DNA of 39,550 nt from an uncultured archaeon (GCA_964526365.1 CAZGLB010000001.1:1-39550); one strand, 5' to 3'. Shown: positions 30,497 through 33,688, counted from the first letter of the stretch. Numbers and translations are program-made. Notes: generated by a model not told the origin, from the letters alone.

Positions 30497-33490
30497 ATGG
30501 CTGCCAAACAAATTATCAATAGAAAAGAAGAAAAAATACCTTATAATATATTTAAAATTAAATTAGCCATTCTTAAAGCACTTGATGCAATTGATAATCC
30601 AGATATTGATTTTGCAGATTATTTAACAAAGAAAGTAGACAAGGCAATAAATCAAGAATATTTTGAAAAAGAAAGATTTCCAAATATTGATAATATTCAA
30701 GACATTGTTGAAGATGTTTTAATTAAAGAAGGGCTAACCAAATTAGTAAAAGCGTACGTAATTTATAGAAAGCAACACGATGACTTTAGGCAGATGTCTA
30801 AATTAATAGATAGTACAAATGCAGTTGAAAGTTATATTAATATCGCAGATTGGCAAGTTAAAGAAAATAGCAATATGGATTATTCTTTGCAAGGCCTAAA
30901 TAACTATTTATCCACAAAAGTAATTTCAGATTATTGGATTAAAAAAATCTATCCACCAGAAATTAGAGAAGCCCATGAAAAAAGGCAAATACATATTCAT
31001 GATCTTAATACTCTTGGTCCATATTGTGTTGGTTGGGATCTTCAAAACGTTTTACAAACTGGTTTTAGAGGGGGCCCAGGAAAAATAGTTGCAGCTCCTC
31101 CAAAGCACTTAGATACTGCACTTGGCCAAATTGTAAATTTTATATATACTCTTCAAGGCGAAGCTGCTGGTGCTCAAGCATTTAGTAATTTTGATACACT
31201 TCTTGCCCCATTTATTTATTACGACAAATTAGATTATCAACAGACAAAAGCATCAATTGAAAAATTTATTTATAATATGAATGTTCCAACAAGAACCGGT
31301 TATCAATGTATGTCACAAGACACAGAAATATTAACAGAAGATGGCTGGAAAACACACGACGATTTAAAAGTTGGAGACATAATTAAGACATTTAATATTA
31401 TTACAGGAAAACTAGAAGATAAACCAATAAAAAAATTATTTATAAAAGAATATTCTGGAAAAATGTATAATATAAAAAACAGAATACAAGACCAATTGAT
31501 TTCTCCAAAACATCGCATGGTAAGAAAACTATTTAATGTTGGGGAGAAATTTGTGTTAGAAGAAGTTGAAATAGTTAAGCAGATGAAATCGCCAGTAATT
31601 CTTCCAATCGCTGCAGAAAACAGCTATAAAGGGATAGACTGGAGCGATGAAAAAATAAAACTTGTTGCTTGGCTAATAGCAGAAGGCAGTTCTGAGCAAC
31701 CCTATCACAAAAATAAAAATTCTAGAAACATAAAGATATATCAATCAGAAATAAAAAACAATAAAGAATATAAAGAAATTAAAGAGCTATTAGAGCATTT
31801 TAAATTAAAGTATTCCGAAACAAAACACACTGGCCTTGGTTTACCAGTAAATCATATTAAAATTAATGCAGAAGGCTCTAGATTATTGCATTCTTGGTTT
31901 TCTGGTGAAAGCAATATAAAATTTATACCAGTAGAATTATTTAAAGCAAATAAAAAACAAGCAAGATTATTCTTAGAAACCTACAATAAGGGGGATGGCA
32001 CAGCAGAGTTTAAAATTTCTACAACCTCTGTAGATATTTTATATGGTTTACAATTTATGTGCGTGCTTGCTGGCTACGGATTTACAACCCTTGGAAGAAA
32101 ACCAACCATAGGCAAAAAACCAATTTTTGTTTTAAGAATAATACAGCACAAAGATACAACAATAACAAGTATTAAAGAAATAGACTATAAAGGGGTAATT
32201 TGGTGTCCAAACACTGACAACGAAACAGTTATTGCAAAAAGAAACGGCAAGGTTTTTATTACTGGTAATACTCCATTTTCAAATATCACAATTGATTTAA
32301 CAGTTCCTTCTACACTTAAAGATCAAGCAGTAATAATTGCGGGTAAGCCACAAGATAAAACATACGGAGAATTCCAAAAAGAAATGGATATCTTTAATGC
32401 AGCGTTACTTGATGTTTTTTATCAAGGAGATGCAGCAGGTAACATTTTTTCTTTCCCCATTCCAACAATAAATGTTACAAAGGATTTTGATTGGGATTCT
32501 CCATTGTCTGATAAGATTCTTGAATTAACAATCAAATATGGAACACCGTACTTTGCAAATTTTGTTAATTCTGATATGAAACCAGAAGATGCAAGAAGCA
32601 TGTGCTGTAGATTAAGACTTGATAACAGAGAACTGCAGAAAAGAGGCGGAGGATTATTTGGTTCTAATCCTTTAACTGGTTCAATTGGCGTTGTAACTAT
32701 TAATCTTGCACAGATCGGTTATTTTGCAAAAACCGAAGAAGAATATTTTGAAAGGCTTGGGCATTTAATGGATCTTTCTAGAAAATCACTTGATATAAAA
32801 AGAAAGATTGTTGAGAAATATACTGATGATGGATTATATCCTTATTCTAAATTTAATTTAAAATCTATAAAAGACAGATTTGGAAGTTATTGGAGAAATC
32901 ACTTTTCAACTATAGGGCTACTAGGCATGAATGAATCTAGTCTTAATTTTTTAGGAGAGCCAATATTTACAGAAAAAGGCAACGCTTTTGCAAATAAAGT
33001 TATGGATTTTATGAGAGATAAAATTCAAAAATACCAAGAAGAAACTGGTGCATTGTATAATCTAGAAGCAACGCCTGGCGAAGGCACAACATACAGGTTT
33101 GCAAGCAATGATAAAGAGAAATATCCTTCAATTATTGTAGCAAATGAAGAAAATGTAAAAAATTCTGGAGCTCAACCATATTACACAAATTCTACACAGA
33201 TACCAGTAAATTACACAAACGATATTTTTGAAATTTTAGAATTACAAGACGAATTACAATGTAAGTATACTGGCGGAACAGTAATACATTTCTTTATTGG
33301 AGAAAAAAAACCATCAAAGGAGGCAATTAAAACTTTAATCAAAAAGATTACAAGCAAATATAAATTACCATACTTTACTTTTACTCCGACCTTTTCAATT
33401 TGTCCAAAGCACGGCTATTTATTTGGAGAATATGAATTTTGCCCAAAATGCGATGCAGAAATTGGTTATACGCAAAAAAGAGAATGTTAA
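30497..33490 (+). CDS. nrdD: anaerobic (class III) ribonucleoside-triphosphate reductase NrdD, intein-containing, lacking the glycyl-radical C-terminus
   Basis: ATP-cone-like N-terminus, IHIHDLN..YCVGW, GEAAGAQAFSNFDT, PFSNITIDL, SMCCRLRLD, GSIGVVTINL, YNLEATPGE, and Zn ribbon CPKHG..x10..CPKC. The ORF ends at TAA TAA before any RVxG[YF] motif. Confidence 0.9.
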   Translation: MAAKQIINRKEEKIPYNIFKIKLAILKALDAIDNPDIDFADYLTKKVDKAINQEYFEKERFPNIDNIQDIVEDVLIKEGLTKLVKAYVIYRKQHDDFRQMSKLIDSTNAVESYINIADWQVKENSNMDYSLQGLNNYLSTKVISDYWIKKIYPPEIREAHEKRQIHIHDLNTLGPYCVGWDLQNVLQTGFRGGPGKIVAAPPKHLDTALGQIVNFIYTLQGEAAGAQAFSNFDTLLAPFIYYDKLDYQQTKASIEKFIYNMNVPTRTGYQCMSQDTEILTEDGWKTHDDLKVGDIIKTFNIITGKLEDKPIKKLFIKEYSGKMYNIKNRIQDQLISPKHRMVRKLFNVGEKFVLEEVEIVKQMKSPVILPIAAENSYKGIDWSDEKIKLVAWLIAEGSSEQPYHKNKNSRNIKIYQSEIKNNKEYKEIKELLEHFKLKYSETKHTGLGLPVNHIKINAEGSRLLHSWFSGESNIKFIPVELFKANKKQARLFLETYNKGDGTAEFKISTTSVDILYGLQFMCVLAGYGFTTLGRKPTIGKKPIFVLRIIQHKDTTITSIKEIDYKGVIWCPNTDNETVIAKRNGKVFITGNTPFSNITIDLTVPSTLKDQAVIIAGKPQDKTYGEFQKEMDIFNAALLDVFYQGDAAGNIFSFPIPTINVTKDFDWDSPLSDKILELTIKYGTPYFANFVNSDMKPEDARSMCCRLRLDNRELQKRGGGLFGSNPLTGSIGVVTINLAQIGYFAKTEEEYFERLGHLMDLSRKSLDIKRKIVEKYTDDGLYPYSKFNLKSIKDRFGSYWRNHFSTIGLLGMNESSLNFLGEPIFTEKGNAFANKVMDFMRDKIQKYQEETGALYNLEATPGEGTTYRFASNDKEKYPSIIVANEENVKNSGAQPYYTNSTQIPVNYTNDIFEILELQDELQCKYTGGTVIHFFIGEKKPSKEAIKTLIKKITSKYKLPYFTFTPTFSICPKHGYLFGEYEFCPKCDAEIGYTQKREC
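31307..32269 (+). mobile_element. intein (321 aa) with LAGLIDADG homing-endonuclease domain inside nrdD
   Basis: The flanks ...VPTRTGYQ / TPFSNITID... rejoin into the conserved NrdD sequence. The insert starts CMSQDTEILTEDG, contains SPKH, has LAGLIDADG-like KLVAWLIAEGS and LFLETYNKGDGT, and ends VFITGN followed by Thr+1. Confidence 0.8.
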
Positions 33491-33541
33491 TAAATAAAAC
33501 TAATATATATCTATAGACAAGAAATAAGGGGGTTAAAAAAT

Positions 33542-33688
33542 ATGAATAACGAAACAGAAAGTAAAAGGCAGAAATGCGAAGTATATTCTAGAGTTGTTGG
33601 CTTTGTAAGAAGAGTTGATGCTTGGAATTACGGTAAACAAGAAGAATTTAAAGACAGGAAATTATTTTCTGTACCAGAGAATAAATAA
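33542..33688 (+). CDS. stand-alone NrdD glycyl-radical peptide (48 aa)
   Basis: Not in the ORF track. Translates to MNNETESKRQKCEVYSRVVGFVRRVDAWNYGKQEEFKDRKLFSVPENK and carries the NrdD C-terminal signature RVxG[YF]...WNxGKxxE. AGGGGG lies 9 nt upstream of the ATG. Confidence 0.6.
   Translation: MNNETESKRQKCEVYSRVVGFVRRVDAWNYGKQEEFKDRKLFSVPENK

Follow-up and report, generated by a model that had tools for sequence, protein, structure and literature searches.

When the gene for a class III ribonucleotide reductase (RNR) stops before the codon of its radical glycine, and the glycine is found in a small open reading frame (ORF) just downstream, is the gene broken, misread, or one part of a two-chain enzyme? 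This question is raised by the nrdD locus in a 39,550-nucleotide (nt) stretch of DNA from an uncultured archaeon (GCA_964526365.1 CAZGLB010000001.1:1-39550; the whole stretch is referred to as the window, and positions are counted from its first letter). To the best of our knowledge, textbook and structural accounts place the radical glycine of all glycyl-radical enzymes on the catalytic chain. The comparisons reported here make it very likely that the locus encodes an obligate two-chain class III RNR, in which a separately translated peptide would be activated by NrdG and docked in the barrel of the large chain. The parts of the locus on which the argument turns are the following.

30497..33490, + strand: nrdD large chain, a precursor of 997 amino acids (aa), about 676 aa once the intein is removed
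32597-32620 (aa 701-708), + strand: finger loop SMCCRLRL of the nrdD large chain
33401-33451 (aa 969-985), + strand: zinc ribbon C-x2-H...C-x2-C, CPKHGYLFGEYEFCPKC, of the form C-x2-H-x9-C-x2-C
33452-33469, + strand: conserved acidic tail D-A-E-I-G-Y, directly after the zinc ribbon
33488..33493, + strand: tandem stops TAA TAA, the end of the nrdD large chain
33494..33541, + strand: spacer of 48 nt after the tandem stops, with an AT-rich run and a Shine-Dalgarno-like AGGGGG
33503-33515, + strand: TATA-like AT-rich run ATATATATCTATA, in the spacer
33527-33532, + strand: AGGGGG, 9 nt 5' of the ATG of the peptide gene
33542..33688, + strand: glycyl-radical peptide gene, 48 aa, MNNETESKRQKCEVYSRVVGFVRRVDAWNYGKQEEFKDRKLFSVPENK; Pfam NRDD positions 531-562 of 562, E = 3.9e-9
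33575-33577 and 33599-33601, + strand: codons of Cys12 and Gly20 in the peptide gene

The large chain comprises an ATP-cone, an NxN flap (ENSNM, aa 123-127), the catalytic barrel, the finger loop and the zinc ribbon, whose region aligns with the zinc region of T. maritima NrdD and is predicted to bind metal; past the ribbon it reads DAEIGYTQKREC, and then meets the two stop codons. It matches Pfam NRDD (PF13597) with E = 7.2e-169 as far as profile position 529 of 562, and profile NF006126 (PRK08270) with 960.9 bits, the cut-off being 548. The NF006126 and TIGR02487 profiles divide between the two ORFs in the same way as Pfam NRDD, and such complementary coverage, with NRDD ending at 529 in one ORF and resuming at 531 in the next, is far beyond chance. 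A motif scan found the R-V-x-G-[YF] motif absent from the 997-aa chain, and its sole occurrence in a plausible context in the whole window is in the small ORF, which lies in the frame of nrdD, 16 sense codons beyond the tandem stops. By every criterion that was tested (barrel profile, finger-loop cysteine, C-terminal zinc site and nearby NrdG) but one, the enzyme belongs to the NrdD family; the exception is the radical glycine, which is on another chain and is found only in the 48-aa ORF. A re-check of the sequence and the Pfam match agree in this respect with the preliminary description of the locus, which had reported an nrdD that passes the zinc ribbon and ends at TAA TAA without the radical-glycine motif, and the motif itself on a 48-aa ORF in the same frame, with AGGGGG 9 nt upstream.

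The peptide is laid out as a basic head (KRQK), Cys12, SRVVG20F, then WNYGKQEEFKDRK and a short tail. Thirteen of its columns are invariant from archaea to bacteria (C12, S16, R17, V18, V19, G20, W28, N29, G31, K32, E35, F36 and R39), and the cysteine, at a distance of 8 residues on the N-terminal side of the radical glycine, is shared by 118 of 123 small proteins, a few family members having Thr or Ala. The alignment with T. maritima NrdD places the break between CPVCG and KAKVDEYMRIVGY, i.e. between the zinc site and the Gly loop; this placement on a structure in the PDB needed a construct in which the large and small proteins were joined, and a PDB sequence search with the peptide alone gave no matches. 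The break is flanked by a variable large-chain tail of 6-12 residues and by a peptide head of 11 residues before the conserved core. More than 150 columns, those of the finger loop R-S-M-C-C-R-L-R among them, are the same in all split and fused large chains (53 aligned relatives). A role of Cys12 as a fourth zinc ligand was considered and set aside, as C, H, C and C are already in place on the large chain, a Val is aligned with Cys12 in T. maritima, and the residue is replaced by Thr or Ala in some of the family.

The junction and its translation signals

The most trivial explanation would be that nrdD is contiguous and that the stops are errors of sequencing or assembly. The prior suspicion that attaches to metagenome-assembled contigs is the only general reason to think so, along with an unrelated locus from a long-read assembly (L067 2977-5150, Saccharicrinis), where nrdD lies in overlapping frames within the barrel and which looks like a frameshift error, not a split. 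The exact 48-aa protein, however, is encoded on 18 contigs, and ten independent assemblies, from different samples and several projects, agree at the junction, with 0-1 differences from the window over 260 nt spanning the stops, the spacer and the start. Over 1,300 nt the same assemblies differ from the window at 9-15 sites, and therefore represent separate populations. Finished isolate genomes are alike, namely those of Halothermothrix orenii (CP001098.1), Cupriavidus necator H16 (pHG1) and Sulfuricurvum kujiense, and 132 Ralstonia megaplasmids. The split is not an artefact, and the probability that an error accounts for it is negligible.

A second possibility is that the stops are real and are overcome during expression, by read-through of TAA TAA, by ribosomal bypass, or by removal of about 90 nt of the mRNA, for example as an archaeal bulge-helix-bulge intron. 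The common frame of the two ORFs in this window is in favour of recoding, and the preliminary description had attached significance to it and contemplated an RNA-level removal of 90 nt. The relatives point the other way: frame offsets of 0, +1 and +2 are found at 7, 7 and 14 of 28 sequence-distinct split loci, and in the closest relative (L001-L004) a spacer of 44 nt leaves the two ORFs in different frames. One Patescibacteria locus has a spacer of 61 nt, and the spacing between nrdD and the peptide gene ranges overall from a 17-nt overlap up to +170 nt, with overlaps of 4-17 nt in some relatives, while in Halanaerobiales the whole of nrdG is placed between the two. At the junction in the window, predicted RNA folding is no better than that of shuffled sequence (z = -0.64), the Rfam scan of the window found tRNAs only, with nothing at the junction, and the neighbouring genes use TAA as an ordinary stop. 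Neither a conserved frame relation nor an RNA signal being found at the junction, we regard recoding as extremely unlikely; a split intein or trans-splicing finds no place either, because no intein blocks flank the break.

No constraint of frame or spacing acts on the two ORFs. The in-frame layout of the window and the likeness of the basic-x-Cys strings on the two sides of the break are coincidental, because they are not conserved in relatives. The latter had been taken as the trace of an insertion that duplicated a few codons, an idea that has to be abandoned, since the last residues of the large chain vary freely (LSKSKN, KEEKKNE and others). When related NrdD loci are aligned, as had been proposed, the break and the small ORF prove to be conserved, but gap length and frame do not.

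The small peptide gene has its own initiation signals, independent of nrdD. In L001, whose peptide is 82% identical, AGGGGG is kept, despite a spacer that is 7 nt shorter and a shifted frame. A Shine-Dalgarno-like motif, often GGAGG, is found 4-12 nt before the small ORF at 24 of 29 split loci, a count which is somewhat inflated, as starts preceded by such a motif were preferred when start codons were chosen. Start/stop overlaps, of the ATGA type or longer, occur at four surveyed loci, and also in Ralstonia solanacearum and S. kujiense; ATGA-type overlaps are typical of translational coupling. As for the TATA-like run in the gap, to which attention had been drawn earlier, it is present at its place in the spacer, but is indistinguishable from background at the 29.5% G+C of the contig; if it were a promoter, the transcript would start at or beyond the Shine-Dalgarno sequence. 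Promoter and terminator scans gave background levels at the spacer, with no terminator-like site between the genes.

Distribution of the split and evidence of function

The preliminary description had treated the split of NrdD as a peculiarity of one locus, which it is not. Among the 120 relatives closest to the C-terminal extein of the large chain (63-93% identity), 110 stop directly behind the zinc ribbon, the other 10, from three lineages, being fused. In the fused relatives (P0165, the P0174 group and P0249), the barrel is 68-72% identical and the peptide sequence is contiguous with it, so that the adjacent genes of the split loci represent consecutive segments of the single chain of relatives, as in a naturally split RNR. 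The best 120 small-ORF matches are, without exception, 38-74 aa long. An exhaustive hidden Markov model search, made with a profile of 28 small proteins against 1.84 billion representatives, returned 5,068 clusters at E <= 0.001, free-standing proteins of 42-149 aa making up 149 of the best 150; the C. necator peptide as query added 6,190 further clusters, whose top 120 are all 53-108 aa long. The motif is present in at least 593 species genomes (one genome per species), and the 80 loci fetched are a mix of fused and split ones. Phage records gave three weak matches only, each within an annotated full-length gene.

The order nrdD-peptide-nrdG was verified in DPANN-type archaea, Micrarchaeota, Woesearchaeota, Dojkabacteria, Saccharibacteria, other Patescibacteria, Bipolaricaulota and Anaerolineales, and the order nrdD-nrdG-peptide in Halanaerobiales (e.g. 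Halanaerobium), another Bacillota genome and Pyramidobacter; split loci were also verified in Synergistota and in Alpha-, Beta- and Epsilonproteobacteria. Cultured carriers include H. orenii H168, S. kujiense, Bradyrhizobium japonicum and C. necator H16 (pHG1), and in the Ralstonia solanacearum complex the split is found in all 132 megaplasmid records in PLSDB. Across the clade the peptide gene encodes 45-66 residues. On this comparative evidence, the split is what a very large clade of bacterial and archaeal NrdD normally shows, and the earlier proposal that the class III RNR is split, its small ORF being initiated independently beside NrdG, is well borne out.

Cupriavidus and Ralstonia offer a view of the function of split-type loci, the strongest indication being that from C. 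necator H16. On pHG1 of C. necator H16, the large chain is 676 aa long, with a calculated mass of 76.2 kDa, and is devoid of the Gly motif; the peptide gene (L105 2953-3153) encodes 66 aa and is located 142 nt downstream of nrdD, in another frame. Siedow and co-workers reportedly gave NrdD a mass of 76.2 kDa, equal to that of the truncated chain. As summarized in PMC2864759, which cites Siedow et al. (1999), the nrdDG genes of pHG1 were reported to be essential for anaerobic denitrifying growth, and the defect to be rescued by cobalamin. Growth in planta induces nrdD and nrdG of R. solanacearum (PMC4715432). Trypsin would release, for example, VDAWNYGK from the small protein of this archaeon and VMGYHRPVSSFNVGK from that of C. 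necator.

As regards annotation, the small gene of C. necator H16 was originally named 'Oxidoreductase', and in Ralstonia records it is a 'hypothetical protein' or has no annotation; the genome paper of C. metallidurans lists NrdDG as Rmet_5137 and Rmet_5139, and skips Rmet_5138 between them. The current labels of the small genes are 'hypothetical protein', 'Oxidoreductase' or 'anaerobic ribonucleoside-triphosphate reductase', where the genes are called at all, and Pfam and NCBIfam hold no models specific to the small peptides. The small genes are thus mislabelled or uncalled, and the large chains are annotated as complete.

Three further features have to be considered before asking whether the archaeal locus might be decaying.

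31307..32269 (aa 271-591), + strand: intein-like insertion in nrdD, 321 aa
33707..34375, + strand: nrdG, radical S-adenosylmethionine (SAM) activase, 222 aa, with motif CNFCCGFC; TIGR02495 178.4 bits, cut-off 131.15
34390..36441, + strand: divergent class II-like RNR with an ATP-cone, 683 aa; Pfam Ribonuc_red_lgC, E = 4.5e-57

The nrdG gene, whose profile TIGR02495 is that of NrdG2, starts 18 nt downstream of the peptide gene, and the class II-like RNR follows 14 nt downstream of nrdG. The latter is a divergent NrdJ-like protein (TIGR02504 211.8 bits, under the cut-off of 399.95), which belongs to the same gene cluster and stands outside the split enzyme; the gene order, including the class II-like RNR, is common to the relatives L001-L004. 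The insertion in nrdD, missed in the preliminary description and undetected in Pfam and NCBIfam scans, starts with Cys and ends with ...GN followed by Thr, has LAGLIDADG-like motifs (LVAWLIAEGS and FLETYNKGDG), and is missing the usual penultimate His; its similarities in the PDB are weak, and solely to inteins and homing endonucleases (PI-PkoII, E = 0.022). It is exactly missing in P0141, a 93% identical relative, and is therefore polymorphic and probably mobile.

A pseudogene would be a nonsense-truncated nrdD with a remnant ORF downstream of it, the deoxynucleoside triphosphates (dNTPs) being made by the class II-like enzyme. The presence of that enzyme in the cluster and the interruption of the large ORF by an intein are both in keeping with decay. 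Against it, the break point is the same across domains of life, with both parts intact, the catalytic residues are invariant, ribosome-binding sites precede the small ORF, and the junction is identical in ten populations. Relative to L001, the ratio of non-synonymous to synonymous substitution rates (dN/dS) is lowest in the large chain (0.06), followed by nrdG (0.11) and the peptide (0.22), showing that both chains are under purifying selection; neither frequent frameshifts or stops in either ORF nor a dN/dS near 1 was seen in close relatives. A split-type locus is, moreover, genetically essential in C. necator, according to the account in PMC2864759. We consider decay of the gene very improbable, and a 'truncated' nrdD in the genomes of DPANN archaea and Patescibacteria should not be counted as a pseudogene.

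Some other observations concern genes outside the split enzyme. At another split locus (L093), a free-standing ATP-cone ORF of 107 aa (997-1320) is located directly 5' of an nrdD that has a Pfam-recognized intein and whose end is overlapped for 14 nt by the peptide gene. In the window, a 1,180-aa ORF (16369-19911, + strand) has no Pfam match at E <= 0.01, and adjoining MutL and MutS genes of bacterial type (21158-25324, - strand) are present, the contig being archaeal in other respects (eEF1A-type factor, RtcB, ELP3, CDC48 and DUF373). The tRNA genes are a Phe-GAA, Lys-CTT and Lys-TTT cluster (25299-25548, - strand) and a tRNA-Met (26919-26993, + strand).

How the two chains may work together

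In the two-chain enzyme that we propose, the large chain, matured by protein splicing of the intein, would provide the ATP-cone, the substrate flap, the ten-stranded barrel with its thiyl-radical cysteine loop, and that half of the glycyl-radical domain which contains the zinc site. The peptide would provide the other half, i.e. the buried loop with Gly20 and the C-terminal tail, and would be translated separately, with a ribosome-binding site of its own; nrdD, the peptide gene, nrdG and nrdJ probably share one transcript. NrdG would abstract a hydrogen from Gly20, either on the free or on the docked peptide, and the radical loop, once in the barrel, would face Cys702/703 and start the reduction of nucleoside triphosphates as in single-chain NrdD. 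We infer co-transcription, activation by NrdG, docking geometry and activity.

The covalent linker would probably be replaced by docking of the acidic D-x-E-I-G-Y tail with the basic peptide head. Of 110 split large chains, 98 go on from the ribbon into D-x-E-[IM]-G-Y, the net charge of the first 8 residues averaging -2.66, and the longer form of this motif, D-x-E-[IM]-G-Y-x-E, is missing from two of the three fused lineages; on the other side, the six residues before the conserved Cys of the peptide have a mean charge of +2.23 and are positive in 120 of 121 peptides. Acidic tail and basic head are therefore put forward as a candidate docking device. It should be noted that the glycyl-radical domain of P. 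copri NrdD is highly mobile, its ordering being coupled to activity (PMC11226230), and that the break lies inside the mobile domain so described.

Besides the inflated count of ribosome-binding sites mentioned above, several points weigh against the proposed enzyme. The production of the peptide, its radical and its binding to the large chain are all predicted from genes, and the class II-like RNR of the window could in principle supply dNTPs. The published genetics of C. necator removed nrdD and nrdG and not the small gene, so that the peptide itself was not probed. An AlphaFold2 model of the fused relative P0165, built on the 53-sequence alignment, has an overall predicted local distance difference test (pLDDT) score of 81.4, with residues 671-713 (the Gly region) and the finger loop below 50; the alignment is just 6 sequences deep over the Gly region, and the model is silent on docking. 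The peptide family alone was modelled with moderate confidence (pLDDT 67.8) as a hairpin with Gly20 at its tip, and a Foldseek search of the PDB with this model gave no significant structural match. A deeper MAFFT alignment that included the small proteins was discarded, because their GY was pulled onto the HGY of the zinc ribbon.

What might be gained by the split? Oxygen cleaves the backbone at the glycyl radical, and because of this a separate loop would be cheap to replace: we speculate that, after cleavage, a 48-residue peptide would be renewed and not a 76-kDa, intein-containing chain. A second plausible benefit is that the activase would have free access to the loop that is its substrate. 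The activase of pyruvate formate-lyase (PFL) acts on short peptides that copy the Gly734 loop, and the small protein GrcA is an example of a free glycyl-radical domain capable of being activated and of complementing its parent enzyme.

Longer forms and known systems

The example of GrcA suggests a different role for the small protein, namely that of a GrcA/YfiD-like spare part or regulator, the truncated chain working in some other way or staying inactive until complemented. Proteins which might play such a part do exist. In relatives of 90-116 aa the same Gly motif comes after a CxxC...CxxC region of the protein's own, and each of them is in effect a whole glycyl-radical domain. At two Patescibacteria loci (L062 5128-5421 and L089 5150-5440), an ORF of about 92 aa with an almost identical Gly motif is found between a complete NrdD and nrdG. 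Gly-motif proteins of 70-116 aa with a cysteine-rich N-terminal region, those of 100-116 aa in Desulfobacterales and elsewhere among them, have no nrdD or nrdG within 5 kb (L024, L038, L044, L050, L070, L082 and L084, all from Desulfobacterales/Thermodesulfobacteriota, and L052, L085 and L091, the last being P0052). We regard these longer forms as candidate GrcA-like spare parts of class III RNR, seemingly the first candidates apart from those of PFL.

The spare-part explanation does not fit the 48-aa peptide equally well. The large chain is without any radical glycine here and in the 110 relatives that stop after the ribbon, and the accessory forms differ in architecture, being longer and having a zinc ribbon of their own. 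We know of no glycine-independent route to the thiyl radical in class III enzymes; as there is no radical glycine on the large chain either, the peptide would be needed, not optional. For the 48-aa peptide the role of spare part is accordingly improbable, if somewhat less so than decay or recoding, and the obligatory trans-acting radical subunit envisaged in the preliminary description is well supported by comparison across relatives.

Within the two-chain enzyme, a more far-reaching possibility, which we put forward tentatively and hold to be somewhat less probable than its contrary, is that the peptide is an exchangeable radical cartridge, activated by NrdG off the enzyme, reversibly docked, and replaced after cleavage by oxygen, the longer forms being true spare parts. 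If so, it would be the first such system outside PFL, and would answer a question left by a June 2026 review, in which spare-part proteins are known only for formate lyases and the case of other glycyl-radical enzymes is undetermined (PMC13450708).

In any case, the split contradicts the standard description of class III RNR, in a clade that includes the tractable C. necator H16, R. solanacearum, H. orenii and S. kujiense. It would provide a natural system in which to study how an activase gains access to a buried glycine loop, since the loop is here a free substrate, and it bears on the docking and undocking of the radical domain, which recent cryo-electron microscopy has tied to allosteric regulation, as well as on a possible repair of oxygen damage by peptide exchange. 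The peptide can also be made synthetically or isotope-labelled on its own, for electron paramagnetic resonance and nuclear magnetic resonance.

No description of a split NrdD was found in the searchable literature, most subscription papers being outside its reach; in papers on RNR evolution, 'split' refers to class II enzymes or to phylogenetic networks. The preliminary description had known of no equivalent of GrcA for NrdD, and the searchable literature has none. That the small ORF has already been noted somewhere is unlikely, although the chance is appreciable.

Among known systems, the closest is single-chain NrdD with NrdG, as in phage T4, E. coli, T. maritima and P. copri. The family is the same by NF006126, TIGR02487 and PF13597, and ATP-cone, NxN flap, barrel, finger loop, zinc ribbon, Gly motif and adjacent radical-SAM activase are common to both, so that the chemistry is presumably the same; the difference is that here the chain stops after the zinc ribbon, the Gly loop and tail being a separate 48-aa product.

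GrcA/YfiD, and likewise Y06I of phage T4, resemble the peptide in being a small free-standing glycyl-radical loop, homologous to the C-terminus of a large enzyme, and GrcA is presumably activated by its parent's activase and inserted in the parent's barrel, as would be the case here. GrcA, however, has about 127 aa and is a homologue of PFL (Pfam Gly_radical, PF01228), whereas the peptide has 48 aa, is without the zinc half of the domain, and gives no match to PF01228, NRDD being its sole Pfam match. GrcA is, moreover, facultative, rescuing a full-length PFL that oxygen has cleaved, while here the parent has no glycine of its own and the peptide would be obligatory; a coexisting parent that bears the glycine is absent from the window, and is found at L062 and L089 with the longer relative.

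A C-terminal module on an adjacent gene, needed for turnover, is also known for NrdJa and NrdJb of Pseudomonas aeruginosa (PMC5704485, PMC9669993). NrdJb is a reduction domain of 150-220 aa, cysteine-rich or IscU-like, whereas the piece detached here would be the radical carrier. NrdJa and NrdJb, furthermore, form a class II enzyme, which obtains its radical through adenosylcobalamin, and the split enzyme belongs to class III. The class I NrdA of Aeromonas phage Aeh1 is split by the homing endonuclease mobE, and its two polypeptides reassemble into an active enzyme; there the cut goes through the catalytic core and an endonuclease gene is inserted, while here it falls at a domain boundary, with a spacer of 51 nt and no inserted gene. 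Finally, benzylsuccinate synthase, with its beta and gamma subunits, and 4-hydroxyphenylacetate decarboxylase, with its small subunit, likewise combine a large catalytic chain with small ones, but in these enzymes the glycine stays on the large chain and the small subunits serve for Fe-S clusters or regulation, whereas in the enzyme proposed here it is the small chain that would carry the radical.

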